Assembly: GCA_002725955.1 (NCBI GenBank)
Contig: PBRN01000273.1
Span: 1-37,218, forward strand
Length of the DNA: 37,218 nt
Direction of reading: 5' to 3'
Origin: Pseudobdellovibrionaceae bacterium
GTDB taxonomy: Bacteria; Bdellovibrionota_B; Oligoflexia; Oligoflexales; Oligoflexaceae
The notes under the pieces were generated by a model that saw only the letters and a list, made by a program, of their open reading frames with translations, was not told where the DNA came from and ran no database searches. The position numbers were made by a program, and so were the translations under genes. Shown here in pieces: positions 2,099-31,956 of the stretch (its first letter is position 1; each line of letters opens with the position of its first letter).

Positions 2099-2425
2099 AT
2101 GGCCCGTTTATATAAAATCTGTTTTTTCTGCCCTCCCAGCCATACGGAAATTGTTAAAGAAGCTATGTTTAGTTCTGGCGCAGGTAAGATCGGTCAGTAT
2201 CAACGTTGTTCGTGGCAAGTCCTAGGAACCGGTCAATTTGAGGCTTTAAAAGGAGCACAGCCTTTTTTAGGTCAAGTAGGAGATCTCGAAACAGTTGAGG
2301 AATATAGGGTTGAAATGGTTTGTGAAGAGGCTTTTTTGGAAGACACTAAAAAGTCTATGATTGATAGCCACCCATATGAAGCTCCCGCATGGGAAATATA
2401 TGAAATATTTGCGGGAGCTCAGTAA
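2099..2425 (+). CDS. YqfO/NIF3-related small protein (stand-alone ~100-aa domain)
   Basis: LYKICFFCPPSHTEIVKEAMFSSGAGKIGQYQRCSW…GTGQF…GAQPFLGQVGDLETVEEYRVEMVC…HPYEAPAWEIYEI matches the family pattern I remember (vvfVP…aGAG.iG.Y..csf..G.G.F.p..ga.P.iG..G..e.v.E.r.E…HPYEepa). Confidence 0.75.
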   Translation: MARLYKICFFCPPSHTEIVKEAMFSSGAGKIGQYQRCSWQVLGTGQFEALKGAQPFLGQVGDLETVEEYRVEMVCEEAFLEDTKKSMIDSHPYEAPAWEIYEIFAGAQ

Positions 2426-2447
2426 TGATCAGAGCTGTCACTGAACT

Positions 2448-2843
2448 TTACTCAGCCCAGCCACCCTCGGGGCGCTTTTCATAAACTCCCTTTAGGAAGG
2501 TCGTACAAACGAACTGAGGCATCCCATTGGTATACATAGCAACCACACCGTTACTCTCTCCTTCGTTAGAGATGACACAACGGGTGTCGTAGTCGACTAC
2601 GGCGCATACTTCAGTATTATAAGATGGTGGGATATCCTCTTTCGACTGGCTCTGACAATAATCTTGCTTCTGACCTTCGGTCCATTCACCGTCAAAGTTG
2701 GCACAACCAGCAGCCCACTTACCCTCAAATTGACAACTAAGGATAGGTGCTTCTTCCGCTATAGCTGACAATGAACCAAATCCTAAAAATAAGCTGATAC
2801 CCAAAGCACGGGTGATCGTGAGAAGATTTTTCTGCTTCATCAT
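2448..2843 (-). CDS. Secreted cysteine-rich protein (6 Cys), function unknown
   Basis: 131 aa. The signal peptide is MMKQKNLLTITRALGISLFLGFGSLSAIA. The mature part carries 6 Cys and several Trp and acidic residues. I recognise no family. It is divergent from the RiPP operon. Confidence 0.55.
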   Translation of the reverse strand: MMKQKNLLTITRALGISLFLGFGSLSAIAEEAPILSCQFEGKWAAGCANFDGEWTEGQKQDYCQSQSKEDIPPSYNTEVCAVVDYDTRCVISNEGESNGVVAMYTNGMPQFVCTTFLKGVYEKRPEGGWAE

Positions 2844-3094
2844 GATTCTCCTAATGTATTATTTGTCCTGCCGTAGTTAGAATTGATTCTGTGCGAACTG
2901 TCAAGTTCAATAAGTTTAGTAGTATAGAAAAATAGACATTACGGAAAGATGACAAAAAAACTAAGCTCAGATCAAGAAATCGAAAAATAATTTAGCACCG
3001 GCCTTAGATCGCTTGCATGCCATCATTTATAGGATCTCATCACCATGAAGACAACATCACAAGAGAGCTAGTTTGCAGCTCCTTAAAAATTAAG

Positions 3095-3122
3095 TTGCTA
3101 TTAACATTGTAATCTTTAAAAT
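3095..3122 (+). promoter_or_regulatory. Candidate sigma70-type promoter for the RiPP operon
   Basis: TTGCTA (3095-3100), a 16-nt spacer, then TAAAAT (3117-3122), about 50 nt upstream of the ATG at 3172. This is a by-eye hexamer match in AT-rich DNA. Confidence 0.3.
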
Positions 3123-3171
3123 CTGAGTGTCGAAATCTTTTGTTTTCAGATAATTGCCTAAGGAGAACTCA

Positions 3172-3438
3172 ATGGATGCCCGCAAGAAAAAATTATTAGT
3201 TACCGCAGCTCTCACTGGTATTTTTGCTGCAGGAGGACTATCTTCCCCCTTGATGGCTAAAAGTGTTAAAGGTCAATGCCACGGTGTGAATGGCTGTAAA
3301 GGTAAAGGCGATTGCTCAGGCAAAGGCTATACTTGTGCAGGAAATAATTCATGCAAAGGCAAAGGCTGGAAAAAAATGACTGAAAAACAATGTAACGCCG
3401 AGTTAAAGAAAAAAGGCTTCTATTTTAAGAAGGGATAA
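3172..3438 (+). CDS. bufA: Bufferin-type RiPP precursor (DUF2282-like, Sec signal peptide, 6-Cys core)
   Basis: I prefer the ATG at 3172 (AAGGAGAA Shine-Dalgarno 5 nt upstream) over the TTG at 3154 in the track. The 88-aa product is MDARKKK-LLVTAALTGIFAAGGL-SSPLMA | KSVKGQCHGVNGCKGKGDCSGKGYTCAGNNSCKGKGWKKMTEKQCNAELKKKGFYFKKG. The pattern C-[YH]-G-V … D-C … C-A-G … W … C matches my memory of DUF2282, and there are two extra Cys in CKGKG repeats. A DUF692 gene follows 3 nt downstream. Confidence 0.8.
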   Translation: MDARKKKLLVTAALTGIFAAGGLSSPLMAKSVKGQCHGVNGCKGKGDCSGKGYTCAGNNSCKGKGWKKMTEKQCNAELKKKGFYFKKG

Positions 3439-3441
3439 CCC

Positions 3442-4371
3442 TTGTTTGGAGTTGGACTTAGACCAACACATTATCCATATTTAGAGGAAAAGCCCAAGAT
3501 CGAGGTTGATTGGTTTGAGGGCATTTCTGATAATTTTATGAATACTGAAGGGCGACCGATGACGATGCTTGAATTAGTTCGAGCAGATTATCCTGTCGCT
3601 CTTCACGGTGTAGGCCTATCCATTGCCGAAGATGGCATGATCAACCCGGTTTACCTGCAACGCCTCAAGACCCTGGTTGATCGCATTGAGCCCATACTAG
3701 TTTCCGATCATTTGTGCTGGACCCGCGGGGGCAAGCACCATCTCCATGATTTACTGCCTGTACCTTATACCACCAGTGCCATTGATATTATCGTGGAAAG
3801 GTTAGAGCGTGTTCAGGAGTATTTAGGTCGCCAGATTATAATGGAAAATGTCTCTAGTTATATTGGTTTTGCCGAGTCTGAGATGCATGAATGGGAATTC
3901 ATTAGCGAAATAATCCAGAGAAGCGGCTGCGGTCTTTTACTTGATGTAAATAACGTTGTCGTGAATGCGCGAAATCACAGATTTCTACCGCAGCACTTTA
4001 TTGATGGGATACCTATTGATGCGGTAAAACAAATTCATCTTGCTGGTCATGAAGACCTAGGAGAGATTCTTTTTGATACCCACGGCGCACCTGTTAGTAA
4101 AGGAGTTTGGGACCTTTGGGAATATACTAGTGAAAAGCTAATGCAAAATATTTTTGACACTGAACCTTGTCACTTAAAAGCTAAACAGAAAACGATTCCT
4201 GTGATCGTTGAATGGGATCAAAACATTCCTGATTTTGAAACCCTGCAAAATGAAGTCATATTAGCTAAAAGAATTTGGGAACGCACCTATGAGGACAGAA
4301 CCATTAGCCCAATTGCAAAAACAGTTTACACAGGGGATTCTTTCGGGGAAACCCAGCACGGATTTACTTAA
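3442..4371 (+). CDS. bufB: DUF692 / MNIO (multinuclear non-haem iron oxidase) family RiPP-modifying enzyme
   Basis: The TTG start lies 3 nt after the precursor stop. No ATG exists upstream of the conserved GVGLRPTHY N-terminus. Family motifs are present: VDWFEGISDNFM, YPVALHGVGLSI, VSDHLCW, LLPVPYT, IIMENVSSY, GCGLLLDVNNVVVNARNH, IHLAGHE, FDTHGAPV and VIVEWD. Confidence 0.9.
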   Translation: MFGVGLRPTHYPYLEEKPKIEVDWFEGISDNFMNTEGRPMTMLELVRADYPVALHGVGLSIAEDGMINPVYLQRLKTLVDRIEPILVSDHLCWTRGGKHHLHDLLPVPYTTSAIDIIVERLERVQEYLGRQIIMENVSSYIGFAESEMHEWEFISEIIQRSGCGLLLDVNNVVVNARNHRFLPQHFIDGIPIDAVKQIHLAGHEDLGEILFDTHGAPVSKGVWDLWEYTSEKLMQNIFDTEPCHLKAKQKTIPVIVEWDQNIPDFETLQNEVILAKRIWERTYEDRTISPIAKTVYTGDSFGETQHGFT

Positions 4372-5050
4372 TGTCCTAGTACCCGGCGGTTCAATAGCAT
4401 CTGCTGAACAGGCTTTCAATGTATACCGCGGCAACTATATGGCAACTCTGACCGAAGTCCTAGGAGAAAACTTTCCCGCTATTTGGCGTGTCGTTGGTGA
4501 TGATAAATTCTTTGAACTCTGCCGTTCTTATATAGAAGTTAATCCTTCAGTTTCCTACGATTTGTCAGACTATGGAGATGACTTCGGTCAGCATATACAG
4601 CAAATTAGCGGGGACGAATGGCCGTTTCTGGAGGACCTCACTCAATTCGAATTAAACTTCAAATATGTTTTCCATTGTTTATATGAAACCTATGACTTAT
4701 CGAACCAACCTTTGGGCCAAAGCAGTGAAGTTACCCTAGCTAATCACTGTAGGCTTTCGGCTGGCGATATCAAAATATATGATATTTGGCTGGCGAGAGA
4801 CCTGGATGATCCAGATTGGGATAGCATAGGCTTAGAGCCAGGTTACTATTTGATTTTCAAAACATCTGCTCAAAATATGAAAGTAGTTGAACTTGAATCA
4901 TGGCAGTTCCTATTGGGCCAAGCATTAGAAAACTATCCTTTGGGTGAAGCTCTTGCTGTCGTCATGGGGGATTGCCCAGAAATGAATCAGGAAGACATTG
5001 GACCATTTTTTTCATTTCTTACCGAAAATCATCTGATAAACTTAAGATGA
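4289..5050 (+). CDS. bufC: DUF2063 family MNIO partner protein
   Basis: The N-terminus (LAQLQKQFTQGIL … AEQAFNVYRGNYMATLTEVLGENFP) fits the DUF2063 pattern (lQ.af..al … l.vYrn.v…L...fP). It lies immediately after DUF692, as in known MNIO operons. The next in-frame Met would delete this conserved N-terminus, so the 83-nt overlap with the DUF692 ORF appears real. Confidence 0.8.
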   Translation: MRTEPLAQLQKQFTQGILSGKPSTDLLNVLVPGGSIASAEQAFNVYRGNYMATLTEVLGENFPAIWRVVGDDKFFELCRSYIEVNPSVSYDLSDYGDDFGQHIQQISGDEWPFLEDLTQFELNFKYVFHCLYETYDLSNQPLGQSSEVTLANHCRLSAGDIKIYDIWLARDLDDPDWDSIGLEPGYYLIFKTSAQNMKVVELESWQFLLGQALENYPLGEALAVVMGDCPEMNQEDIGPFFSFLTENHLINLR

Positions 5051-5096
5051 TATAAATATAAGTCCCCTATAACTTATCCCTGTCTAGTCGTGGGCC

Positions 5097-6755
5097 TTAT
5101 ATCTCTGTAGCCTCAACCTTTTCCCACATCTTAATAAAACCCTCGGCTGATCGAAATAATGGAGCTAGGTCTTCTTCGTTCATACCGATGTTGCTCATGT
5201 CAGCAATAAAATCGGGGATCATGCCCACATTAGACATACCATCGAAATTAATATCCATCGCCTTTTTGCCAATTTGAAGCCTGTTAAAAGAAATGCTGCC
5301 ATCATAGGAAATAAATGGATACTCAACGGGGTTTCTTTGTTCGGCAACTTGCTCGGCATTTCCACCACAACCTTTTTCACCAAACCTAGCTGAAGGCATG
5401 GTAATCATACCGTTGAGATCTGAACCAAAAGCAACGGAAGGGTATAGGCTCCACCTTTCACTTTTGTCTTTAGCGTAAAGATATGACTGAGCCCAGCTTC
5501 GGATGGAGTAGTCGCAATTGTGATCAATTTTACCCCAGGCAACACTATTCTTCTGGCTTGTCTTTGGGAAAATAGGAGCGACCATACCTCCTAACTGCAG
5601 AATCCTTTGAGTCTGTTCTTCGGTTTTTTTGTTTTCCGCTCGGCTAGATCCTTTTGCTATATCGAGGAAACCGGTATGTGAAGAAACTAATGGATAATTA
5701 TGATCTTCTGCTAAATTCAAAGCCTGATCTATTCCATACTTACTCATATGATCAGTATCAATAATCATTTTATGTTTCATCAGAAGAGTCAAAAAAGACC
5801 TTCCAAAATCTGATAAACCGCGGCTGTTGCAGTGCCCATCAAATTTGCCCAAAGATGTAATTTTAAATTCAATACCCTCTGCTGAGCAATCCCGAGCCTT
5901 AAACAACTGCCCTTGACCAAGCAGATTACCTAAGGTCAAAACCCCTGTTTGATAGATGGCCGCTCCACTGAAGCCATTATCAAATAAATGGACCGGGAAG
6001 ACATGACTCACCCCTTTCCGCTTATATTCCAACAAGGATTTTTCTACTTCTGCGAAATTGCATTTTTCTAATTTACAATCAAATAGTGAATCAACTTCAA
6101 TGCCTAAAACGACTGCTAATTTACCATTCTTAATAACATCGCGAGCCTCTCTCGATGATTTGACAATTCGAAACCACCCTAGCCCTTTGCCCCCTGCTTG
6201 TCTATCAATGTAATCTTGTAGATCATAAGCCGCTTCTATTTGCCGATCTACCAGAACCATATCATTACAACTTGATTTTTTTTCTTTTGGCACCAGCTTA
6301 CAAAGTACTTCATTATTTACAGCATGGATCACAAGTAAACGCAGCCCGCCCCGAAAACTACGTTCAATCCACTCGTAATACATAGTTTGTCTATTGACTT
6401 GATCATTCTGTGACCAATTACCCAGGTTTTTCCGATCTGATTTTTTACCATTGGGTCCATCTCCCAAGGCAAGTTCGGCAACTCTGACTATAAGACGATC
6501 AAATATCGAATAAGAACTATATGACAGTGCTTCTTCTATACCTTTCTCGTCAAAGGGTTTCCCCTCAAAAAATTTACCGCCGAATGCTAGATTGGCAAAC
6601 AAGTGAGTATGTATGTCCGCATAGCCGAATATTTCTTGCTCGAGACCACTTCCATCAATAGATTTCCCGAGACTTGTGATAGGTAGAATTAAGAACACAA
6701 AAAATACAAGCCGTTTCACTTGCCCGTTTGGTTTTATTCTTATTGTTTTACTCAT
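5097..6755 (-). CDS. Secreted amidohydrolase-fold protein, distant membrane-dipeptidase (peptidase M19)-like
   Basis: Signal peptide: KRLVFFVFLILPITSLG. The motif order parallels M19: ADIHTHL (metal HxH/HxD position), VVLGIEVDS (…EG…), GVSHVFPVHLFDNGFSGAA (GvRyltLtHn.dN), GLSDFGRSFLTLLMKHKMIIDTDHMS (GLt.fG…mlvDlSHvS), PLVSSHTGF (PviFSHSs) and AFGSDLNG (giGsDfDG). At 552 aa it is much longer than typical M19 enzymes. Confidence 0.55.
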   Translation of the reverse strand: MSKTIRIKPNGQVKRLVFFVFLILPITSLGKSIDGSGLEQEIFGYADIHTHLFANLAFGGKFFEGKPFDEKGIEEALSYSSYSIFDRLIVRVAELALGDGPNGKKSDRKNLGNWSQNDQVNRQTMYYEWIERSFRGGLRLLVIHAVNNEVLCKLVPKEKKSSCNDMVLVDRQIEAAYDLQDYIDRQAGGKGLGWFRIVKSSREARDVIKNGKLAVVLGIEVDSLFDCKLEKCNFAEVEKSLLEYKRKGVSHVFPVHLFDNGFSGAAIYQTGVLTLGNLLGQGQLFKARDCSAEGIEFKITSLGKFDGHCNSRGLSDFGRSFLTLLMKHKMIIDTDHMSKYGIDQALNLAEDHNYPLVSSHTGFLDIAKGSSRAENKKTEEQTQRILQLGGMVAPIFPKTSQKNSVAWGKIDHNCDYSIRSWAQSYLYAKDKSERWSLYPSVAFGSDLNGMITMPSARFGEKGCGGNAEQVAEQRNPVEYPFISYDGSISFNRLQIGKKAMDINFDGMSNVGMIPDFIADMSNIGMNEEDLAPLFRSAEGFIKMWEKVEATEI

Positions 6756-6799: not shown

Positions 6800-9052
6800 T
6801 TAAATCACTCCTGCTGCGATTAATTTTGCTCTAAGATCTTGCCCGACGGTGCAGCCCTGTTGGTAAAAAACAGGGGGTTCTCCTACCGGTGCTTTGACTT
6901 CATACCAACGACCTTTTTCGGAAGAGTCATAGAGTTGATTGGACCAAAGGTTTATCCAACGACCTGCGGGTAAGTAGACCTTTCTTCTTTCAATATTTTT
7001 TGCCACCACGGGCGCAACAATAAATTTATCTCCAAATAGAAATTGGATACGCCGATCTGGTAAATTGATAAATACTTTATCATCCGGAAAATGCATTGCA
7101 GGATGCCGGACCACAGGCCAACCTAAATTAGCTGCTTCTTCAAACAGTTTTTGCCGATATTCGCTCAAAGCCACATACACTTTGGAAAAACGATCAAATT
7201 GCGCATAAGTTTCTTCATCAGAGTAAAACTGGAAATTTTTCTCAGGCATATTTCCTTCATGCGTTCGGTAGACGGGGAAAAAGGCCGATGCTTCTGCCCA
7301 GCGCATAAATAAGTTTTTTTCTCGAGAAAGGCCAAGACCAGCTAATTTAAACGTACTGTAACCACCGATATCGCTATGATTTAAAGAATAACCTGAAAAT
7401 CCTCCACTTATCTGCCCCTTTAACGCACTAATAAAACCATCATAACGATCCCATGTGACCAGCTGATCTCCCAACCAAAACAAAGTAGTCAAGCCAGGGG
7501 ATTGAGTAAAACCGGATCGGCTAAAGAATAGCATTTCCTTTTCACCGCCAACCTCTTTTATAACCTCTCGATTGAGTCGCGCCCATTCTTCTGGATATTT
7601 ATTATGAAAGGTGGCAGGAGAACCTTTATGGAGTACGGCATCCATAGGCAGCGCTTCACCAAAATCGGCCATCCAACCACTTAGGCCTATGCCTACCATT
7701 TCTTCTTTAATAATTGTCTTAATCCACTCTCGGGTTTCAGGGTTAGTTATATCTAATAGGCCTGCCGCAAAATCGGTATTCACTATGGGATAGACTTGAT
7801 TATTTTTATCAACCACCAACAGACCTTTAGCTGCTGCTTCACTGTACATATTGCGCTGAAAACTCTGCTTGCCAGAACTTTTTACATCCACCAGGAAGGG
7901 GTTCACATAGCCTAAAACCCTAATATTTTCCCTAGCAAAATCTGATAGCATGGCTTCCCAGTCTGGATATCGTTTCCTGTCTAGCTCCCAATTCCACCAG
8001 AGCTGTGATCCAGTTGCAGTTTTTCTCTCTCCCTCCCAGTCTTGCAACCAAAAGGCAGAAACCGGTGTCTTTCTTTTCTGCAACTCTTTGTAAATTTTGC
8101 GGACAAAGCTGGTACCACCCTGCATGCCAACGATTGCCCCCTGGTGTACCCATGATGGTAGCGGTTCCATTCTGCCAGAATATTCTGTAAAGCTAGTCAC
8201 TAAGTCCAGAATACTATTACCATGCAGCAAGCGACCGGTTATCGCTACCTCGGGGCCAAAAACGGTAATAACGGTACGATTCGTTTGCAGGTCGAATGTA
8301 GAATATTCTTTATTTTCGAGAAACAGACTATGTAAGTCGCTAGAAATATAATGGGGTACAGGAGCGTAAGTAGAAAACTCATTACCTCCAGAGCCACGGG
8401 ATCCCCAATTCACAATGGTTGTGATCAAGGGACGCCCCCTACCAATGCCTCCCTCTTGGGTTAGAATAGGTATTTTACGCCCCTTGAGTTCCATATGACT
8501 AAACTGTTCCCCAAAGCCATAAAATTTTTCATTTGGATGAGAGGCAAGAAAGATCCTAGCATAGGTCACGTCTTTTCTACCGAACTGAAGCTTGAACTGC
8601 AGATGTCCTGCTTGCACTACTTTAAATGTGAGCTCATATTTAATTTTAGGTCGCTTTTTACTGCAATTAAAAAGCTCACCTTTGAGCTGTAACTTTTCTT
8701 CGACTTCAACTAAGTTAATCTCATCTAGAGACTGATTTTTACAAGTCCATCGAAATTTTTCCTTAATACTAAATGAACCACGCTTTTCGGTGTAATCAAC
8801 TTCCGCATGACCAGCTTCGACAAAGCTGCGGTTTGGAATCGAAGACCAAAGTTTCTTCTCAGAATCATTCTTATGATAAATTTGAAGAGCCTTGTCAGTA
8901 TTGCTCCAGACAAGGACAAAGTCATTAAGTAGCCAATTTGAAGAAGGCACCTTGCTTATTATGCTTCCCCCGAGAGCCTGGGTAGTCAATGTAAGAGCGA
9001 GGCAGAAGATCAAGTAAAATGTGGCTTTGAAGTCAACAAGATACCTTGACAT
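6800..9052 (-). CDS. Secreted glycoside hydrolase family 31 (YihQ-like clade alpha-glycosidase)
   Basis: Signal peptide: FYLIFCLALTLTTQALG. GH31 signatures are present: AFWLQDWEGE…LWWNWELD, the nucleophile motif SGWMADFGEALP and the acid/base region LNHSDIGGYS. Length is 750 aa. Confidence 0.85.
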   Translation of the reverse strand: MSRYLVDFKATFYLIFCLALTLTTQALGGSIISKVPSSNWLLNDFVLVWSNTDKALQIYHKNDSEKKLWSSIPNRSFVEAGHAEVDYTEKRGSFSIKEKFRWTCKNQSLDEINLVEVEEKLQLKGELFNCSKKRPKIKYELTFKVVQAGHLQFKLQFGRKDVTYARIFLASHPNEKFYGFGEQFSHMELKGRKIPILTQEGGIGRGRPLITTIVNWGSRGSGGNEFSTYAPVPHYISSDLHSLFLENKEYSTFDLQTNRTVITVFGPEVAITGRLLHGNSILDLVTSFTEYSGRMEPLPSWVHQGAIVGMQGGTSFVRKIYKELQKRKTPVSAFWLQDWEGERKTATGSQLWWNWELDRKRYPDWEAMLSDFARENIRVLGYVNPFLVDVKSSGKQSFQRNMYSEAAAKGLLVVDKNNQVYPIVNTDFAAGLLDITNPETREWIKTIIKEEMVGIGLSGWMADFGEALPMDAVLHKGSPATFHNKYPEEWARLNREVIKEVGGEKEMLFFSRSGFTQSPGLTTLFWLGDQLVTWDRYDGFISALKGQISGGFSGYSLNHSDIGGYSTFKLAGLGLSREKNLFMRWAEASAFFPVYRTHEGNMPEKNFQFYSDEETYAQFDRFSKVYVALSEYRQKLFEEAANLGWPVVRHPAMHFPDDKVFINLPDRRIQFLFGDKFIVAPVVAKNIERRKVYLPAGRWINLWSNQLYDSSEKGRWYEVKAPVGEPPVFYQQGCTVGQDLRAKLIAAGVI

Positions 9053-9850
9053 AAACGAGCCTCCATAAAAGCGAGATAGCCAAGTGGTACTATTCGTGGC
9101 ATTTATTGAAATATAAATAATTATAAATACTAACTTTTATTAGGATACCCGGTGAAGACCTTTGATTAAACTAGAAAAAAAATTCTTGTTAAGATTTGTT
9201 GTCGTGTCTCATTCAGAGAAAAGTTAATAAAACAGAGCTAAATTAGACCTAGTCTATATGTCTGTATTTACATACAATTAAAAACGTTTAACAGTAAACA
9301 CCACAAAAAAGCTTTTCTCACCGACCATCAATCATGCGTTTGATTATTCTCAGAAAAGACACTGAATAGACAGATGATATGCAATGCATATTTATCTATT
9401 CATCATGATTTATAAAAACGCATCATTCATAGAGTTCATTTAATAATCACATTTTATTTTACGATCGACAGACTCAACTAGGTGCCATCTAATTACGCAA
9501 ACACGACAAGACATACTATCTGCTTAGGAAGCAGATCTAAGTTCAGGTTGCCTAGAGTAGAGTTAGCAGGGTATCCAAGACCGAAAGTTTTACTGAGTCT
9601 TACGATTGAATGAGATTCCGCAAAGATCCAAGCTAAAAGATTCCTATCTTTGAGAAATTCACGTTCACTAAGATGTTCCTGGTTACCCAAAGATCAGAAG
9701 TGCACAAAACATCAAATTGATACCGCTAACGAACAAAATGACACCTTTTTAAGCAAAATAGCTCTTAATTCGATAATTTTATGCAATCCCGAAGGTGGCA
9801 TGAAAATCGCATAGCTTCTTCTTTAGAATGACAATTCTGCGGAGGAAACC

Positions 9851-10453
9851 ATGAAATTAGCCACCAAGAAAACGACATTGATCATGTTGAGCACCATTTT
9901 CCTTCCCGTTGCTGCTAATGGTCGTTACAGCGATATCAAAAAATTTAGTGTGCGAGGGAGTGGCTGCGGATTAGGCTCAGTTTCAGCAGAATTATCGAAT
10001 GACAATAAACTGCTTTCCATATTTTATAAAGACTTCAACACCAGTAGTGATGATCGCAACAATCGACGTTCCCGCAAACATTGCAAAGTAAACGTCTCGT
10101 TAAACGGACCATCAAATCATTACCTGAAAATTAAAGGTATTGAATTTGCTGGCTCTATTAACCTCCCCAAGGGAGCCAGTGCCTATGTTAGCAGTGAGTA
10201 TTTCTTAGATAGAAACAGAATTGGGAAAAAGTTCTTTAAGAAATGGGGGATTGCTGAAAGAAAAACTGACGATGACTTTGAGTTATTCTACCCTACTGAC
10301 GTAACCTCAAAATGTAGCGGGAACGCTACTATAACTGCCAACAATACCATCGGGGTTCTTGCGGGAGATAAAGATGATGGTTATATAGAAGTTAGCAACG
10401 TTTCTAACCGACCAGGATTAAACTTTATTTTCGAATGGAAGAAATGCAATTAA
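9851..10453 (+). CDS. Secreted protein, DUF4360-like
   Basis: GGAGGA Shine-Dalgarno and signal peptide MKLATKKTTLIMLSTIFLPVAANG. FSVRGSGCGLGSVSAELSNDNKLLSIFYKDF…RKHCKVNVSLNGPSNHYLKIKGIEFAGSINLPKGASAYVSSEYF follows the DUF4360 pattern as I remember it (GsGCp.gs..v..s.d…l.v.f..f … nC.l.l.l..P.G … G...L..g). Confidence 0.45.
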   Translation: MKLATKKTTLIMLSTIFLPVAANGRYSDIKKFSVRGSGCGLGSVSAELSNDNKLLSIFYKDFNTSSDDRNNRRSRKHCKVNVSLNGPSNHYLKIKGIEFAGSINLPKGASAYVSSEYFLDRNRIGKKFFKKWGIAERKTDDDFELFYPTDVTSKCSGNATITANNTIGVLAGDKDDGYIEVSNVSNRPGLNFIFEWKKCN

Positions 10454-15924: not shown

Positions 15925-16431
15925 TTAGATTGCGAAATTCAATAGATGTTTTTTAAATATTCTCGTATCAAAATCTGATTTTAGATCACATCCCAAAAAA
16001 CAAATAACCTGTTGTTCATTTGATTCAAGACACCACCAATGATAATGATTAAATTCTGTCTCATCTGCTTTAGACCAGATATTTGCAAAGCCTCTCGTGG
16101 TATAGGGCAGGCTAATACCAGAATCTATGCCGCACTTACCAAGTCCGGTTTTGACGGTACCAATAACCATCTGACATAATTTTTCATATAGATTGAATGC
16201 ATCTTCGCTAAAAAGGGCTTGAGGTTCGATTTTATTTTTAAAAAAAACCTTAAATAACATTTTGTCATTAAATGAGTGCAGTGTAATCATTGAAAACCAG
16301 AAATCCTCAAAATTAGGCATTTTCATCAGATTGTATAATTGAATATCGCCCTCTTCACACATACTACTGAAAAAAATACGTGAATTTTCTTTAAATAAGT
16401 CAAAGACGAGATCTCTTTGTATTTGGTTCAA
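15925..16431 (-). CDS. CheX-like domain protein, catalytic pair apparently lost
   Basis: The TTG start overlaps the upstream stop (gcTTGAacc) and sits behind an AAGGAGG Shine-Dalgarno. FWFSMITLHSFNDKMLFKVFF…FNLYEKLCQMVIGTVKTGLGKCGIDSGISLPYTTRG follows the CheX core pattern. Where CheX has G-E-L-G-N, this protein reads E-K-L-C-Q, so E becomes K and N becomes Q in my by-eye alignment. Confidence 0.5.
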   Translation of the reverse strand: MNQIQRDLVFDLFKENSRIFFSSMCEEGDIQLYNLMKMPNFEDFWFSMITLHSFNDKMLFKVFFKNKIEPQALFSEDAFNLYEKLCQMVIGTVKTGLGKCGIDSGISLPYTTRGFANIWSKADETEFNHYHWWCLESNEQQVICFLGCDLKSDFDTRIFKKHLLNFAI

Positions 16432-17348
16432 GCGGCCTCCTTGTTATTCTCATCTAATTTACGCAGAGGAGGAGTTAAATCGTCATAAAAGTCATTTACA
16501 CTATGAATAGAAGTGATAAATCCAGATAGATCATCCAAGACTTTGAAAATAACCGTCCTATTATAATTATTATCCCGTGTAATTTCTTCGACTAAATTAA
16601 GCATTTTTTCTATGCTAATATTAAAATCCATGGAATATTTATTAATACGTTCATTAAGACATTGGTAAAGAATGACATTATCATTAATTTCTTCTAAGAA
16701 AAGAGTCGTCTTTTCTTGAACTTCCTCAATTAGTTTTGCAGTATCCTGCACCACTTTTTGACTAGCGGCAGATAAATCGATAAATGAATTAGCAACAACA
16801 ACGAGCCCACTACCCTTTGCCCCCATTCTTTCTGCAGCAATGGCTGCATTGAATGAAAGCAATTTGTATTTATCAGATAGATTTTTAATTTCTGCTGTAA
16901 ATGTTTTTAAGCCGATGAAGAGAGCTTTCAAATCGGCCAAGGTATCGATCGAATTAGTCATATCTGCTACAGCTAACCCTTGGGCAGATAAATATTTTTG
17001 TGATGACTTGTTCTTTATATCAATTGCGATTATTTTCTTCTTATACCTTTCAATGGTCGAAGAAATATCAGTATTCATGGACTGGAAGTTCTGCAATAGT
17101 TTTTTGGTTTTAGCTGCTCCTATATTTTGTTTATCTTGATATTCAGCTGTCGAGCTAGATATTATTTCTGAATAATCATCAATTTTTTGAAACCAAGGTT
17201 CTATATTATCCTTATCTCGCTCAATAGATTTTAGAGCTGCTTGATGCTTGTCATGCAATAGCTCACAGCTAGATTTCTCTGATAATTTTAGCTTCCTAAA
17301 ATATAAGAGAAAAATAATCGTTTCAACAATGAGAACAAATGATATCAA
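16428..17348 (-). CDS. Sensor-less mini methyl-accepting-chemotaxis-like protein (single N-terminal TM, degenerate signalling hairpin)
   Basis: TTG start with an AGGAG Shine-Dalgarno 5 nt upstream. The N-terminal TM segment is MISFVLIVETIIFLLYF. YKLLSFNAAIAAERMGAKGSGLVVVANSFIDLSAASQKV aligns to the MCP tip consensus [34 protein letters not shown]. Length is 306 aa and the protein ends …DENNKEAA. Confidence 0.7.
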   Translation of the reverse strand: MISFVLIVETIIFLLYFRKLKLSEKSSCELLHDKHQAALKSIERDKDNIEPWFQKIDDYSEIISSSTAEYQDKQNIGAAKTKKLLQNFQSMNTDISSTIERYKKKIIAIDIKNKSSQKYLSAQGLAVADMTNSIDTLADLKALFIGLKTFTAEIKNLSDKYKLLSFNAAIAAERMGAKGSGLVVVANSFIDLSAASQKVVQDTAKLIEEVQEKTTLFLEEINDNVILYQCLNERINKYSMDFNISIEKMLNLVEEITRDNNYNRTVIFKVLDDLSGFITSIHSVNDFYDDLTPPLRKLDENNKEAA

Positions 17349-17550
17349 GTCAGCTCCTGGATCTAAATCAAGACCTAAAGCTTTTCGGCTTTCTGCTACG
17401 GCTATTCATTCCATTTCGGTAAAAGTTGGCAAAATCATTGAAATATACTAAAAAATATAAATAGCTCTTAGTCATTTAGTTAAAGCTACATGTTTCACAA
17501 CCCGAAGGAGTGCCTGGGAATCGGTAAAAGCTAATGACAGAAATATAGAC

Positions 17551-18651
17551 ATGACTAAAACAAATCAAACAGCCCTAGATAATAAATCTCCAGACTCTGA
17601 TGAAATAGTTCAGTCGAAAGAGAAAAAGTTGGCTTTTATGAATGATGTCCATACGCCAATTCAAATCACTTTAGCATTGGTTACAGTCGGTTCTTGGAGC
17701 CAGCTAGGACATGAGGATTCCAAGGCTTATATTACTGTAATTCCTTTATCATTATTATTTATTCATCAAATATACCTGCTATTAGACTTTAAGAGTAAAA
17801 ATCGCCAGAATTACAACAATATGAGTAGTTCTTTTAGAACTCAGATTGTCAGATCAAAGAAAGTGGTAAGCAGATTTCATACTAATACAGCCAAGCTTGT
17901 CAGTGGAATACTGGCTTCGTCCAGTAATATTGACCTCAGCGCCAAAGGGCAGCTCAAATACTTGCGTAAGCTATTATATGGATTCATGAACTACACATCG
18001 AGATTATCGATGTTATGCGAAAAATGTGAAACATCTGTCGTAACTGCAGCTAATATTAACAACATTTCAAAGCAGTCTATCGAAAGCCTAGAAAAACAAA
18101 AGGATACAGGTTCTGAATTATTGAAAATCACTAAGAAACTAAGTGTTATAAATTCATTTATTGAGGAAATTGCGAACAGCACCAGCAAGTGCACTGAGAT
18201 AGCACTCAAAAGTGAGATGCTTGCTTTTAATGCTTCGATGGAAGCAGCGGCTGATGAAGCAGGTGGGGAATTCGCATCTATCGCCAAAGAAATGGACGCT
18301 TTAGCCAAGAAAATACATGAAAAATCAGCTACCATGGACAAAATTATTAAAACTACTAAAAAGACTAAAGCTTCTCTCTCCGAAAAATTAAACCTTAGGG
18401 CAGAGGAAGAGATGGGGCGAACTCAGATCATTATTGATAAATATGTCAGTGTCGCTGATGAATTACTGTTAGCAATCGATGATTCTGAGTCGGTGATCAA
18501 GAAAGTTACTGTACAAAGGAAAAGAGGAGGACAGTTAATGGCCTCACTTCAGCTATTACAAGAGGCAACTGTTGTTTTATGTAAAGATCTTGACCAGATG
18601 GAACAAACAATAAAAGGAGATAGCACTTCTAATTCTAAAGAAGCTGCTTGA
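17551..18651 (+). CDS. Sensor-less mini methyl-accepting-chemotaxis-like protein (membrane hairpin anchor, degenerate signalling hairpin)
   Basis: There are two hydrophobic segments (IQITLALVTVGSW and YITVIPLSLLFIHQIYLLL). SEMLAFNASMEAAADEAGGEFASIAKEMDALAKKI aligns to the MCP tip consensus with a 1-residue deletion. The protein ends …STSNSKEAA. No other ATG/GTG/TTG lies in frame between the upstream stop at 17458-17460 and 17551. Confidence 0.7.
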   Translation: MTKTNQTALDNKSPDSDEIVQSKEKKLAFMNDVHTPIQITLALVTVGSWSQLGHEDSKAYITVIPLSLLFIHQIYLLLDFKSKNRQNYNNMSSSFRTQIVRSKKVVSRFHTNTAKLVSGILASSSNIDLSAKGQLKYLRKLLYGFMNYTSRLSMLCEKCETSVVTAANINNISKQSIESLEKQKDTGSELLKITKKLSVINSFIEEIANSTSKCTEIALKSEMLAFNASMEAAADEAGGEFASIAKEMDALAKKIHEKSATMDKIIKTTKKTKASLSEKLNLRAEEEMGRTQIIIDKYVSVADELLLAIDDSESVIKKVTVQRKRGGQLMASLQLLQEATVVLCKDLDQMEQTIKGDSTSNSKEAA

Positions 18652-26919: not shown

Positions 26920-29658
26920 TTGATTATAAACTGGATCAATTCAAGACTTTCTAGAAAACTCAATTTATACATAGTAGCCACATTTAGTTTGGCCGTCGTC
27001 GGCTTGTCGTTCATGATTGTGTCAACAAATTTTGAAAACTCTAAAAAAGATTTGCAATCACGAGCAAATCAGGCAGGTAAACTAGCCTCAAGAGCATTAG
27101 CTCAAGCCATCTGGGACATGGATATCAATTCCATGAATAAAACAGCTGATGCCTTAATGCTCGATGAAGAAATGATCTATCTGCGTATATATAATGACTT
27201 TGATCATGAGACCGTACGAACCCGTGGCATTGGAAAGAAACTATCGGTTGATATGCTTAAGCAAAGCCCTCGCTTTCCTACTTCGCAGATAGCAATAGAG
27301 AGAAATGATCAAAACATAGCAAATGTTGAAATTGTAATGGGAGATGCAAGCATTGTCGAAAGGGCTAAAAGAAGCGCTATTTCTATAATCACCCTAAGCA
27401 TCTCGGTTTTAATCATTATCGCTCTGGTCATGACTTGGGTGCTCAACACTGTGATCAAAAAGCCACTTTTGGTGCTTGGTGCACATGCAGCGCGGGTTAC
27501 TACTGGGGAGCTGGAACATGAAATTGACGTGAGTAGAAAAGACGAACTTGGAAATCTAGCTCGGTCTTTTAAAGAAATGCAAGGCTCAATTCGTAAGAAA
27601 ATCCAAGATCTGTATTCACTTAATGAAGCTGGTGAGACTATCATGGATTCCAATTCGGAATCCGGCGTACTTACCTTTTGTATTAAAAGGCTTGAAGAAC
27701 ATAATAAATTTTCTGAAGGGTCAGTCTATTTATATGATAAAACAATAGATAAGCTAAAATTGTTAGCTAGTGATCAGGAATCTAAATCCTTGAATGAAGA
27801 GATCCTTGTAAACACGACAGATGGGATCCTTGGGGCTGCTGTAACTAACAGAAAAGTGATATTTGTCCACGACACTAATACAGATAGCCGCTTTCCTGAA
27901 CTAAAGTCGACTATGAAAGAAGCCCGACTAGCCATACCGATGATTGATGCTGGACAATTATTTGGAGTTATGACCTTTTCCGGAGACAGTTCTAAAGTAA
28001 AATTTGAAGATACTGATATGGATTTTTGTGCCACTCTCTCACGTCTTTCAGTAAGCCGAGTGAAGAGTATACATATGATTGGTGTTATTGAGGAACACAA
28101 TAGAACATTGGAAAAAAAGGTAGAAGAAAGAACGCAGAGCTTAAAAACTAAAACCAATGATATCAATGCGATGTTGCAAAACATGAAGCAGGGTATTTTT
28201 ACATTTAATGGTAACCTCAAAATACATCATGAATATTCCGCTCATTTAGAAAAGATTTTAGAACATAACAATATAGCGAATCAAAATCTATACGACCTTA
28301 TTTTAAGTCATACCGAACTCGGATCCGACCAAAACTCGCAAATAACAGCATGTTTACAGTCCTGTTTTGGGGAAACTGCTTTAGCTTGGGATTGTAATAG
28401 TCATCTATTACCTAGAGAAGTTAATTATACTTCACTAAACGAAGAACGTAAGATTCTTGAATTTGACTGGAACCCTACTTTTGACGACGACGACCTAATT
28501 GAAAAATTTATCGTTACGGTAAGAGATGTAACTGTTCTCAAAGAACTTGAAAAAGAATCAGAGCATCAAAAGCAGGAACTTAATATCATTAGCGAAATTA
28601 TAAATATTCCTCAAAATCGTTTTAATGATTTTATTAAAAACTCTAAGAATTTCATTCTAGATAATCAAACCATTCTAGAGAACTACTCCGATAAAAAAAA
28701 TGATGATATAAAAAACATGATCGAGATTCTATTTCGCAATATGCATACCATTAAGGGTAATGCTCGCGTTTATGGCTTTCGCTTAATTTCTGATATTGTT
28801 CATAATGCCGAACAATTTTATGACCAAATTCGGCAGGGTGTTGAACAATGGGACACAGTTAAGCTCAAAGCTGATCTGCTAGAGGTAGAGGCGGTGATCG
28901 ATTCATATGAAAAGATTAACGCCGATAAATTAGCGTCTTTGTCGACTCAAGAAAGTGATAAAGGGCTCACGGTTGAAGATTTACAGAATGTACAAGATAT
29001 TTTTGATGCGCTTAAGCCTAAAATAAAAGGCGAAGATCACAGTCTATTAAATAAAGTGTCTCAAATGATTGATATGAAGGAATACGTCCCTGTCGAAGAA
29101 GCAACAAATCAGGTCATTAAATCGATGCCGCATCTCGCAAAAACTTTGGGCAAGGAGAATCCTGAAGTCATCATAAATAATCCAAGGATCCGTATTCCAT
29201 CAAAATATCAATCGACTATTGAGGATGCTTTTACCCATATTTTAAGAAATTCGTTAGATCATGGCATAGAAAAGCCAGAGGTCCGCAAAGGAAAAGGCAA
29301 GAAAGAAGCCGGCACAATAAATATTTTGTGGTCAGAGACTCAAAATGCTATTACCGCTACAATTCAAGATGATGGCCAAGGACTTAATTTAAACAAGCTT
29401 AGACAAATCTTTAGTAACAATGGATCTTCTGATACGGCTAGCTCTGTTAGCGATGCTGAGCTAGCAGAAACTATTTTCCGCTCAGGTATGTCAACAGCTG
29501 AAACAGTCAGTCAAATTTCAGGCCGTGGCGTTGGACTTGAAGCAGTTCGAAACTTTATTCGTAATTTAGGCGGCGATATTGCCGTTAAGTTCAATGGTGA
29601 TAAAAATAATAAAGGTTATCGTCCAATAATCTTTGAAATAGAAATTAAGAAGGCATGA
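26920..29658 (+). CDS. Membrane sensor kinase: TM-periplasmic loop-TM-HAMP-GAF-PAS-like-Hpt-CheA-type HATPase (no CheW-like P5 domain)
   Basis: TTG start, since no ATG lies upstream of TM1. TM1 is LYIVATFSLAVVGLSFMIV and TM2 is AISIITLSISVLIIIALVMTWVL. HAMP begins KKPLLVLGAHAARVTTGELEHEIDVSRKDELGNLARSFKEMQ (nt ~27457-27615). A GAF-like block follows (…VYLYDK…ILGAAVTNRKVIFVHDTNTDSRF…LAIPMIDAGQLFGVMTF). The Hpt motif FRNMHTIKGNARVYGF places the His at codon 609 (nt 28744-28746). The CheA P4 signature is VPVEEA…LAKTLGKENPEVIINNPRIRIPSKYQSTIEDAFTHILRNSLDHGIEKPEVRKGKGKKEAGTINI…IQDDGQGLN…ISGRGVGLEAVRNFIRNLGGDI. The protein ends ~25 aa later. Confidence 0.8.
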   Translation: MIINWINSRLSRKLNLYIVATFSLAVVGLSFMIVSTNFENSKKDLQSRANQAGKLASRALAQAIWDMDINSMNKTADALMLDEEMIYLRIYNDFDHETVRTRGIGKKLSVDMLKQSPRFPTSQIAIERNDQNIANVEIVMGDASIVERAKRSAISIITLSISVLIIIALVMTWVLNTVIKKPLLVLGAHAARVTTGELEHEIDVSRKDELGNLARSFKEMQGSIRKKIQDLYSLNEAGETIMDSNSESGVLTFCIKRLEEHNKFSEGSVYLYDKTIDKLKLLASDQESKSLNEEILVNTTDGILGAAVTNRKVIFVHDTNTDSRFPELKSTMKEARLAIPMIDAGQLFGVMTFSGDSSKVKFEDTDMDFCATLSRLSVSRVKSIHMIGVIEEHNRTLEKKVEERTQSLKTKTNDINAMLQNMKQGIFTFNGNLKIHHEYSAHLEKILEHNNIANQNLYDLILSHTELGSDQNSQITACLQSCFGETALAWDCNSHLLPREVNYTSLNEERKILEFDWNPTFDDDDLIEKFIVTVRDVTVLKELEKESEHQKQELNIISEIINIPQNRFNDFIKNSKNFILDNQTILENYSDKKNDDIKNMIEILFRNMHTIKGNARVYGFRLISDIVHNAEQFYDQIRQGVEQWDTVKLKADLLEVEAVIDSYEKINADKLASLSTQESDKGLTVEDLQNVQDIFDALKPKIKGEDHSLLNKVSQMIDMKEYVPVEEATNQVIKSMPHLAKTLGKENPEVIINNPRIRIPSKYQSTIEDAFTHILRNSLDHGIEKPEVRKGKGKKEAGTINILWSETQNAITATIQDDGQGLNLNKLRQIFSNNGSSDTASSVSDAELAETIFRSGMSTAETVSQISGRGVGLEAVRNFIRNLGGDIAVKFNGDKNNKGYRPIIFEIEIKKA

Positions 29659-29822
29659 ACATATACACCGAGCATAGTTAGTAAATTATTATTGACAGCA
29701 TCAGAAGATATCCTAGTGTACCGAATAGAATAGCCGAATAATATTTATAAATATATGTATGGCGAGAAATTTATCGGGTGGTCGCAGGCATTGATACCAG
29801 CATGATCGGATATTAGAGAGGA

Positions 29823-30206
29823 TCAGCTGGCTTTAGATGGCGCAAATCTATCCAAAATCTGTTCAAGAATTTTTGTTTCAATCGGCTTCACTACCCATCC
29901 ATTTGCCCCCAAACTTCTAGCTTCGTCAACATAGGGTTGAGTGTTTTCTGTAGAAAGAACAAATATAGGAGGCTTCTCTATTTCGTCTTCATGTTTTTTG
30001 AGATCCCTAAGAGTATCTAAGCCATTCATTATAGGCATATTGATATCCAAAAACATCAAGTCTATATCATTGGACTTTAATGTTTCAACCACTTTACTGC
30101 CGTTTTCTAGTTGCATACTTTCGTAACCGTAACCACGCAGAAGAATACTCAATTGTGTTCTGATTGTGACTGAATCGTCTACCAGTAAAACCATTCCTTT
30201 AGACAT
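29823..30206 (-). CDS. Single-domain CheY-like response regulator
   Basis: 127 aa. VLLVDDS (acidic pocket), LMFLDINMP (phospho-Asp), FVLSTE (Thr) and GWVVKP (Lys) are all present. There is no output domain. It is convergent with the kinase gene, with a 164-nt gap. Confidence 0.88.
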   Translation of the reverse strand: MSKGMVLLVDDSVTIRTQLSILLRGYGYESMQLENGSKVVETLKSNDIDLMFLDINMPIMNGLDTLRDLKKHEDEIEKPPIFVLSTENTQPYVDEARSLGANGWVVKPIETKILEQILDRFAPSKAS

Positions 30207-30477: not shown

Positions 30478-31956
30478 CTAAAGAGAGTTAAGAAAAGCTA
30501 GTAATAAAGATCGTTCTTTAGGAGTTAAATTACGGTAATGATCCCGAGCCGCAAGCGCTTCACCGCCGTGCCACAAAACAGCCTCTTCAATATTCCTCGC
30601 CCGCCCATCGTGCAGCAATTGGGTGTGGCCACTAACAGCTTCCGTCGCACCTAAACCCCATAATGGTGGAGTGCGCCACTCTCGTCCTGTAGCCCCCCCT
30701 TCACCTCTATGGTCAGCGAGGTCTGGCCCCATATCATGCAGGAGTAAGTCACTCCACGGCCATATTTTTTGGTTAGAGAGAGCTTTTAATTTTTTATCAT
30801 TTCCCGTTAAATAGCCTGGGCGATGACATCCTGCGCATCCACTGGCAAAGAAGATTTTCCTTCCAAGCTTTACTTGCTTATCTTTGAATTTAGTCCGCAC
30901 AGGAACAGCTAAATGACGACTATAGAAAAGTACCAGCTCTAACATTTTAGGTGTCACTTCAAAATCTTCTTTTTGATTGGACTGTCCATGAGGCGATGTA
31001 AGGCACTCTTTTTGACTATCTGTACAATCTCCAGCCGGCGAAGGGGTTAGTGGCGCAGAAAGGCCAATATCACCATTGAATGCTTCCTGAATTTGCTGAT
31101 TCATAGTGGGTTGACCAGCTTTCCAACCAAACCTACCCGGCATAATTTTCTGATATTCTTTACTCCAGACAAGATTGACTCGTCCTGATACGCCATCCTT
31201 ATTTTTATCTTCTGGATCCGCTTGAGCAAGTATTGCTTCCACTGGAATCAATTCTAATAAACCAAGACCTATCATCGGAGGAGCTATGCGAGGAGACATC
31301 AGCACATTTTTATGCAATGGGCCGTAACCTAAATGAGTGATTTTATAAGAGGGGACTCTAAGTACAACTGATGGAGCACCACGTAATGAGACTTTCCTCT
31401 CGTGGTAAGTAATGTTTATCCGGCCTTCTGCATTTTGACCTGCGACGGCCATATCTTGCAATTGCTTACCATAATTAGGCTCAGGAATGACATGCACTCT
31501 TCCACTTTTAAGCTGAGCAAAGTCCTTTTTGGTTTCCGGTTTTATACTTAATCTGAGCAGCATCGAAACCGAATTATCTTTGGGCCAGTTACCTTCAGGT
31601 GTGTGGCCTCGGCCATCTTTTAGATGACAATTTTGACATGATCTAGCATTGAACAGTGGCCCCAAGCCATCAGCAGACTTAGTTGAAGAAGGAGATGAAA
31701 CCCACAATCGGGTAAAAAGGCTATCACCCATTGCAAAATCAGCCTGTTGTATGAAAGTTATATTGGCGGCTGGCTGTGAAAAAGCATTCCGGTTGCGCTT
31801 TCCTCGAAAGGTTGCGGTGCCACCCGGAAAAACTTCACTGGGATCTTCTATCAAAAATTTTTTCAGATTATTAGCAAGAGAATCATCGCTAATCAGGCTG
31901 AGAATCAACATAATCTGTAAGGCGCAAATAAACTTGCGCCCACTAAATAACACCAA
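30478..31956 (-). CDS. DUF1111 family di-haem c-type oxidoreductase
   Basis: Two CxxCH haem-binding motifs (CQNCH and CAGCH). Family blocks FGWKAGQPT, REWRTPPLWGLG, LLHDGRARNIEEAVLWHGGEA and a signal peptide are present. The TTG start directly abuts the imelysin stop. Confidence 0.85.
   Translation of the reverse strand: MVLFSGRKFICALQIMLILSLISDDSLANNLKKFLIEDPSEVFPGGTATFRGKRNRNAFSQPAANITFIQQADFAMGDSLFTRLWVSSPSSTKSADGLGPLFNARSCQNCHLKDGRGHTPEGNWPKDNSVSMLLRLSIKPETKKDFAQLKSGRVHVIPEPNYGKQLQDMAVAGQNAEGRINITYHERKVSLRGAPSVVLRVPSYKITHLGYGPLHKNVLMSPRIAPPMIGLGLLELIPVEAILAQADPEDKNKDGVSGRVNLVWSKEYQKIMPGRFGWKAGQPTMNQQIQEAFNGDIGLSAPLTPSPAGDCTDSQKECLTSPHGQSNQKEDFEVTPKMLELVLFYSRHLAVPVRTKFKDKQVKLGRKIFFASGCAGCHRPGYLTGNDKKLKALSNQKIWPWSDLLLHDMGPDLADHRGEGGATGREWRTPPLWGLGATEAVSGHTQLLHDGRARNIEEAVLWHGGEALAARDHYRNLTPKERSLLLAFLNSL

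Follow-up and report, generated by a model that had tools for sequence, protein, structure and literature searches.

We analysed a 37,218-nt stretch of contig PBRN01000273.1 (assembly GCA_002725955.1, Pseudobdellovibrionaceae bacterium), called the window below, and found in it three genes that very probably constitute a bufABC operon of the Buf2 type (BUF_6/12Cys, or 'Cys-Lys' captophorin), the product of which would act as a copper-chelating thiooxazole peptide. A sequence-only reading of the same DNA had earlier proposed a bufferin-type operon made up of a secreted Cys-rich precursor, a DUF692 oxidase and a DUF2063 partner. Matches to the BufA2, BufB and DUF2063 profiles upheld the operon type and placed it in a different subfamily, namely Buf2 and not DUF2282/Buf1. 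The locus carries every Buf2 feature that could be looked for, save an acidic residue directly after the catalytic Asp of BufB, and it lacks the defining features of Buf1, EGKCG/oxazolin and methanobactin systems. Gene anatomy, membership of the three proteins in their families, conservation of catalytic residues and of Cys, the fold of the partner protein and the gene order were all observed directly and are described in turn.

The precursor, BufA, scored 60.3 bits (E 1.6e-16) with the NCBIfam equivalog NF050166 (Cu_RiPP_BufA2, 'BufA2 family periplasmic bufferin-type metallophore'), whose cut-off is 60. Pfam PF10048, which describes DUF2282/BufA1, gave no match at E<=0.01, and the precomputed match to it was weak. 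The in-silico checks that the earlier reading had proposed were all positive: DUF692, DUF2063 and a bufferin precursor model matched, the last being BufA2 and not DUF2282. Searches returned 50 homologues of BufA, the closest of them, apart from BufA itself, being 59% identical. Across an alignment of 47 homologues all six Cys (C36, C42, C48, C55, C61 and C74) were invariant, as were G38, N40, K43, N59, G63 and G65, and the Cys-Lys motifs C42-K43 and C61-K62 were conserved. The Cys are arranged as C-x-G-x-N-x-C-K-G...C...C-x-G-x-N-x-C-K-G-x-G...C, and the duplicated C-x-G-x-N-x-C-K-G pattern is that of the BUF_6/12Cys family. At its N-terminus BufA has a basic n-region (MDARKKK) and a 16-residue hydrophobic stretch (L8-L23) over which nine-residue Kyte-Doolittle means reach 2.0, followed by PLMA and then KS, with cleavage predicted after PLMA (residue 29). 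The n-, h- and c-regions of a Sec signal peptide were thus recognised, and both the signal peptide and the Lys-, Gly- and Cys-rich core of about 59 residues agree with what the sequence-only reading had described for this 88-residue protein. BufA has no lipobox Cys; lipobox-like signal peptides are present in about a quarter of the homologues (11 of 47). The Lys-richness and high pI of BufA were considered as an unusual property and rejected as such, since the family has medians of 19% Lys and pI 9.2, where BufA has 25% and 9.7.

An AlphaFold model of BufA reached moderate confidence (pLDDT, the predicted local distance difference test score, 65; core 66-76). It places CysI in the first strand (residues 33-39) and CysVI in a helix (residues 71-81), which agrees with the published topology of BufA1 and BufA2, in which CysI lies in a strand, CysVI lies in a helix and both are disulfide-bonded (PMC11626156). 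A PDB profile search with BufA returned nothing meaningful, and Foldseek found no significant match to the model (pLDDT 65). Scanning the window with the BufA hidden Markov model (HMM) identified bufA as the only BufA-like open reading frame (ORF).

The enzyme, BufB, gave the strongest family assignment. It matched Pfam PF05114 at 310 bits (E 1e-92) and scored 323.7 bits (E 7.5e-97) with the NCBIfam equivalog NF050167 (MNIO_BufB, 'MNIO family bufferin maturase'), for which the cut-off is 310. Other MNIO models all scored far under their cut-offs: HvfB at 219 of 360 bits, MbnB (TIGR04159) at 65 of 325, ApyH at 72 of 400 and ChrH at 43 of 600. Searching the PDB retrieved 3BWW (E 4.9e-38), followed by TglH and MbnB (E 2.8e-9). 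The seven MNIO motif blocks that had been recognised earlier were all located, HGVGLS at residue 55, SDHLCW at 88, ENVS at 135, LDVNNV at 167, HLAGHE at 199, DTHG at 212 and EWD at 257, and the metal-ligand positions within them proved to be conserved. Specifically, H55, D89, H90, E135, D168, N171, H199, D212, H214 and D259 were present in 120 of 120 aligned sequences, and E257 in 119, the remaining sequence having a gap at that column. When BufB was aligned with MbnB (7TCR), H55, H90, E135, D168, N171, H199, D212 and H214 corresponded to MbnB H54, H90, E133, D163, N166, H192, D208 and H210, which are the iron ligands in the published MbnB structures. N171, D212 and H214 of BufB are also the counterparts of N175, D242 and H244, three residues without which HvfB is inactive (10.64898/2026.07.17.739211), and D259 is the counterpart of D249, the catalytic base of FonB (PMC13097082). 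The nearest BufB other than the protein itself was 55% identical. Named matches at 48-54% identity were spread over Nitrospirales, Leptospira, Bdellovibrio and Spirochaetia, and a scan of GTDB genomes reached at most 46% identity, to metagenome-assembled genomes of Alphaproteobacteria, Gammaproteobacteria and Planctomycetota.

Two features of BufB bear on what reaction it catalyses. The first is a 16-residue insertion, MQNIFDTEPCHLKAKQ (residues 234-249). None of the 119 other nearest homologues has residues at its central positions, and between one and four have them at its first and last few positions. It is missing from 3BWW too, and at least six independent assemblies carry it unchanged. 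On its N-terminal side is the helix that follows DTHG and on its C-terminal side the strand bearing EWD; because this is a loop preceding a barrel strand, it probably points away from the active-site face. The second feature is Gln260 (codon 4219-4221), which directly follows the catalytic Asp. Of the 120 nearest homologues, 70 have Glu and 29 have Asp at this position, while Gln occurs in 10 and Ala in 6. The residue at this position has been proposed to select the residue beside the modified Cys, and D251 of BufB2 to contact the substrate Lys, an acidic residue there being a tendency and not a strict definition (PMC13097082). It is in this soft feature alone that the locus departs from the Buf2 type. 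Since MNIO enzymes are chemically versatile, BufB might instead perform a different reaction, such as the oxazolone/thioamide chemistry of methanobactin, the beta-carbon excision of TglH, or modification of another subset of Cys. Such a reading would draw on the fact that no other sequence exceeds 55% identity to BufB, on the private insertion, on Gln260 at a position implicated in substrate selectivity (PMC13097082) and on a Buf2 modification that has not been solved by nuclear magnetic resonance (NMR) (PMC12452194). However, BufB passed the bufferin maturase equivalog while the MbnB, ApyH and ChrH models stayed far under their cut-offs; the MNIOs of Buf1, Buf2 and EGKCG systems share one sequence cluster, and the products that have been re-examined were all 5-thiooxazoles (PMC13097082; 10.64898/2025.12.15.693703). 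The predicted placement of the insertion, away from the active-site face, also speaks against it, and we regard a different chemistry as very improbable.

The third protein, BufC, matched Pfam PF09836 (DUF2063) over residues 8-103 at 68.9 bits (E 4.6e-19), and scored 26.8 bits with the HvfC model against a cut-off of 142. A word-indexed homology search returned a single 90%-identical variant. This scarcity is a sensitivity artefact, as 3,898 representative relatives came up at E<=1e-3 in an exhaustive HMMER search, with matches over the full length and at most 37% identity. BufC was modelled with AlphaFold from a 61-sequence alignment at pLDDT 95.9, as a helical N-terminal domain and a strand/helix C-terminal domain. 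Foldseek matched the model with probability 1.00 to NGO1945 (3DEE), a DUF2063 partner of solved structure, and to TglI (8HI7_A and 8HCI_A), and weakly to MbnC (E 0.68) and to the RiPP recognition element (RRE) of TbiB1, RiPP denoting a ribosomally synthesised and post-translationally modified peptide. PDB sequence and profile searches with BufC returned nothing meaningful, and it was the fold comparison alone that linked the protein to 3DEE and TglI.

The three genes are co-oriented, intact and tightly packed, as first described (Table 1). The TTG start codon of bufB, 3 nt past the TAA stop of bufA, also held up: no other start is workable, since the TAA of bufA stands in the reading frame of bufB and initiation at the next possible codon would cost the protein its invariant G5, R7 and H10. 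The DUF2063 partner was likewise borne out by its Pfam and fold matches. However, it does not simply follow bufB. Because the N-termini of BufC relatives coincide with the ATG at 4289, bufC overlaps bufB by 83 nt (4289-4371) in a different frame, compared with 4-11 nt in related loci. The Pfam domain of BufB (residues 2-278) is complete ahead of this overlap, and the C-terminal tail is 51 residues long against a homologue median of 37. The extra tail may stem from loss of an ancestral ATGA-type stop; other BufB homologues have tails of 46-64 residues past the catalytic Asp. An assembly frameshift as the source of the long tail and the overlap was rejected, given the identical sequence in at least six assemblies and the similar tails of homologues.

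The window derives from a European Nucleotide Archive (ENA) marine metagenome contig from open-ocean TARA samples, and the host has a GC content of about 40%. At least six independent assemblies contain the same locus, and TARA Oceans samples are the source of several of these. We compared the window with the ENA record of the same contig and with three other copies (two from ENA and one Logan assembly), and found one synonymous difference, at 4813 (CCA/CCT, Pro175 of BufC). Since the remainder of 2101-5097 is identical, the population is nearly clonal across samples. These comparisons bear on the idea that the locus is decaying or is not expressed as an operon, so that the overlap would mark a frameshifted bufB end and the peptide would stay an unmodified Cys-rich periplasmic protein. 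An overlap of 83 nt where the nearest relatives have 4-11 nt, a bufC start without a clear Shine-Dalgarno sequence and the existence of stand-alone bufferin precursor genes without an MNIO (PMC12452194) could be read in that way. All three ORFs are nevertheless intact and keep every conserved catalytic residue, the BufB domain ends before the overlap, tails of comparable length are known, and at least six assemblies, made independently and from different samples, agree in their DNA at all but one synonymous site. Decay of the locus, or its failure to be expressed as an operon, is exceedingly improbable.

The order bufA-bufB-bufC recurs in six related loci (L007, L008 and L011-L014) and on the P0002 contig, with unrelated flanks. 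In L013/L014, on a contig of 'Proteobacteria bacterium SG_bin7' (4915-5974 and 8080-9179), YceI and YHS-domain genes lie upstream and genes for MarR and an extracytoplasmic function (ECF) sigma factor lie downstream. In L011/L012, on TARA scaffolds (7965-10124), a VTT/DedA-fused pyridine-nucleotide disulfide oxidoreductase gene is directly downstream. Metal- or redox-flavoured neighbours of this kind are missing from the window.

Table 1. Features of the bufABC locus (positions in the window).
Feature	Positions	Strand	Description
Promoter-like TTGCTA-16 nt-TAAAAT	3095-3122	+	9/12 positions match; weak lead only
Shine-Dalgarno AAGGAG	3160-3165	+	6 nt 5' of the bufA ATG, read directly in the sequence
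bufA	3172-3438	+	ATG start, 88 aa; Buf2-type (BUF_6/12Cys, 'Cys-Lys') bufferin precursor
Sec-type signal peptide, BufA aa 1-29	3172-3258	+	predicted signal peptidase I cut after PLMA
BufA core peptide, 59 aa	3259-3435	+	pI 9.7; 15 Lys, 12 Gly, 6 Cys
bufB	3442-4371	+	TTG start, 309 aa; MNIO (DUF692) bufferin maturase
BufB insertion aa 234-249, MQNIFDTEPCHLKAKQ	4141-4188	+	16 aa, lineage-private
bufC	4289-5050	+	ATG start, 253 aa; DUF2063/RRE partner protein, PME1 type

Characterised relatives suggest how the system would work, and it is from them that the chemistry, the modified Cys, the export route, the cleavage site, the disulfide and the metal are predicted here. BufA would be made as an 88-residue pre-peptide and processed in the cytoplasm by BufB acting in complex with the DUF2063/RRE partner BufC. 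BufB would hold a multinuclear iron site, in whose active form a mixed-valent Fe(II)/Fe(III) pair would occupy sites 1 and 2. Using O2, the BufB-BufC complex would carry out a four-electron oxidation of each of C42, C48, C55 and C61 to give 5-thiooxazole rings. In core numbering these are Cys13, Cys19, Cys26 and Cys32, the thiooxazole sites predicted by analogy with Caulobacter Buf2, and Cys7 and Cys45 are the predicted disulfide pair. The modified, still linear peptide would then leave through Sec, signal peptidase I would remove residues 1-29, and the C36-C74 disulfide would form in the periplasm. The resulting basic mini-protein of about 6.3 kDa would chelate copper through its thiooxazoles, Cu(I) more tightly than Cu(II), and buffer the periplasm against metal excess. 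The computed monoisotopic mass is 6318.08 Da for the unmodified core and 6299.94 Da for the expected product with its disulfide.

The closest characterised system is buf2ABC of Caulobacter vibrioides (CCNA_03001-02999), which consists of three genes without DoxX and encodes a core of 61 residues with six Cys (PMC11626156). Its four central Cys lose 4.03 Da each, CysI and CysVI are left unmodified, and the operon is copper-induced and copper-protective (PMC11626156). The present locus has the same genes in the same order, no DoxX, a Sec signal peptide, a six-Cys core of about 60 residues, two C-K-G motifs, a BufB-type MNIO and a DUF2063/RRE partner (PMC11626156; PMC13097082). It is, however, very divergent, the best non-self database identities being 59% for BufA, 55% for BufB and 37% for BufC, and it differs in the 16-residue BufB insertion, the Gln after the catalytic Asp and the 83-nt overlap. 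The Caulobacter operon is under SigF. With the Buf1 systems (buf1ABCD of C. vibrioides and the gig operons of Cupriavidus) the locus shares the MNIO cluster and the partner type, and Sec export, the outer disulfide, the conversion of inner Cys to 5-thiooxazoles and copper buffering are predicted to be shared as well. Buf1 precursors have four Cys and match PF10048, whereas BufA has six and does not match that model at E<=0.01. Buf1 clusters also usually include DoxX (bufD) and often an ECF sigma/NrsF anti-sigma pair, neither of which is encoded among the scanned ORFs of the window (see below).

The oxazolin, fontiphorin and gonophorin systems (HvfABC/FonABC; EGKCG or 'Lys-Cys' captophorins) also combine an MNIO and a DUF2063 partner with a signal-peptide precursor. 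Their products contain 5-thiooxazoles and are associated with copper, a likeness that is predicted for the present locus. Their precursors have EGKCG repeats, and in their MNIOs the catalytic Asp is followed by Phe (3BWW, 'ERDF'), whereas the BufA core lacks the EGKCG motif and BufB has Gln at that position. Methanobactin biosynthesis (MbnABC) has in common the TIM-barrel MNIO fold and the set of iron ligands, and its need for a partner and its oxidation of Cys to a copper ligand are predicted to be shared. It differs in its distant MbnB (E 2.8e-9), a precursor with a leader peptide, oxazolone/thioamide products, a dedicated exporter and a role in copper acquisition.

Several observations weigh against the identification of the locus as a copper-chelating Buf2 operon. 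BufA cleared the BufA2 model by a margin of only 0.3 bits. The thiooxazole of Buf2-type peptides has been assigned by mass shift and absorbance at 305 nm, not by NMR (PMC12452194); NMR-confirmed thiooxazoles are those of Buf1 and of several EGKCG peptides, and not yet those of Buf2 (PMC13097082, 10.64898/2025.12.15.693703, PMC12452194). Gln260 and the private insertion could mean that the substrate is handled differently in detail. No promoter or terminator above chance was definable at the locus. Finally, nothing in the 37-kb window points to copper. We scanned its non-nested ORFs of at least 100 residues lying wholly inside the window, leaving out a gene cut at the left end (1-750), and found among them no DoxX, no sigma/anti-sigma pair and no copper homeostasis gene (CopA, Cus or multicopper oxidase). 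DoxX and linked regulators are typically absent from Buf2 clusters, including the prototype buf2ABC (PMC11626156, PMC12452194), so the missing regulators say little here.

The context leaves room for the same biosynthesis to serve another metal or role, in which the peptide, instead of protecting against an excess of copper, would scavenge scarce open-ocean copper or detoxify a different thiophilic metal such as Hg, Ni, Zn or Au. Copper-homeostasis genes and copper-responsive regulators were not found among the scanned ORFs, MerC-Buf2 fusions have been reported in mercury clusters (PMC12452194), a disulfide oxidoreductase gene lies directly downstream in the related loci L011/L012, the upstream neighbours in L013 are YHS and YceI genes, and the contig comes from open-ocean TARA samples. 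Set against this, all characterised members (Buf1, Buf2, oxazolin, fontiphorin, gonophorin and bulbicupramide) are copper-linked (PMC11626156, PMC13097082), and Buf2 clusters typically have no linked regulators anyway (PMC12452194). We consider another metal or role unlikely. It is slightly less likely still that this is a diverged open-ocean Buf2 system whose function differs from that of the copper-detoxifying prototypes, through another set of Cys, another metal, retention of scarce copper or an addition to the pool of strong copper-binding ligands in seawater. Such divergence comes into question because of the private insertion, Gln260, the unusually Lys-rich, non-lipidated core and the lack of linked metal genes.

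The sequence-only reading had let the locus begin at 3095; only the weak promoter-like match of Table 1 lies there, it does not rise above shuffled sequences, and coding begins at 3172. The region contains 11 such sites compared with 6.6 +/- 2.6 in shuffles, and the 328-bp spacer upstream of bufA, in which this match lies, has inverted repeats at chance level only. No Rfam family and no tRNA were found in the window, and no intrinsic terminator was found after bufC.

Across the same spacer, and divergent from bufA, a gene at 2448-2843 on the minus strand encodes a 131-residue protein with a signal-peptide-like N-terminus and six Cys, with a Pfam DUF7707 match that is sub-threshold only. We considered this gene as a second substrate or accessory and rejected it, as it has no BufA HMM match and is absent from related buf loci. 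Convergent with bufC is a gene at 5097-6755 (minus strand) for a 552-residue protein that resembles membrane dipeptidases (M19) and has a hydrophobic segment at its N-terminus; the 46-bp gap between the two genes contains no terminator hairpin. Further away, adjoining genes for imelysin (Peptidase_M75) and a di-haem oxidoreductase (DHOR/cytochrome c) occupy 30478-33243 on the minus strand, and a nickel superoxide dismutase gene (Sod_Ni) lies at the right contig end (36729-37193, minus strand). A sensory cluster at 16428-18651 and 26920-30206 encodes two divergent proteins with MCP-signalling domains, a TTG-initiated 912-residue HAMP-GAF-Hpt-HATPase kinase and a single-domain response regulator.

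The locus had been singled out earlier as the least ordinary block of the window, a view that is dated and overstated: thousands of Buf2 precursors are known (PMC12452194), dedicated annotation models exist, and the catalogue of MNIO-partner loci exceeds 24,000, with about half of the reference genomes of Pseudomonadota represented (PMC13097082). The locus would be annotated automatically by the NCBI models now in use. It is a divergent but ordinary addition to the well-described bufferin family and introduces no new class, mechanism or question. Bufferins and captophorins themselves represent a recently recognised and very widespread form of bacterial copper handling, and are rare examples of RiPPs exported through Sec. 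Within this family the locus could help to prove by NMR the Buf2 modification, so far deduced from mass and ultraviolet data, and, having Gln and not Asp or Glu after the catalytic base, it is a potential outlying test case for the rules by which MNIOs of the Cys-Lys type recognise their substrates.

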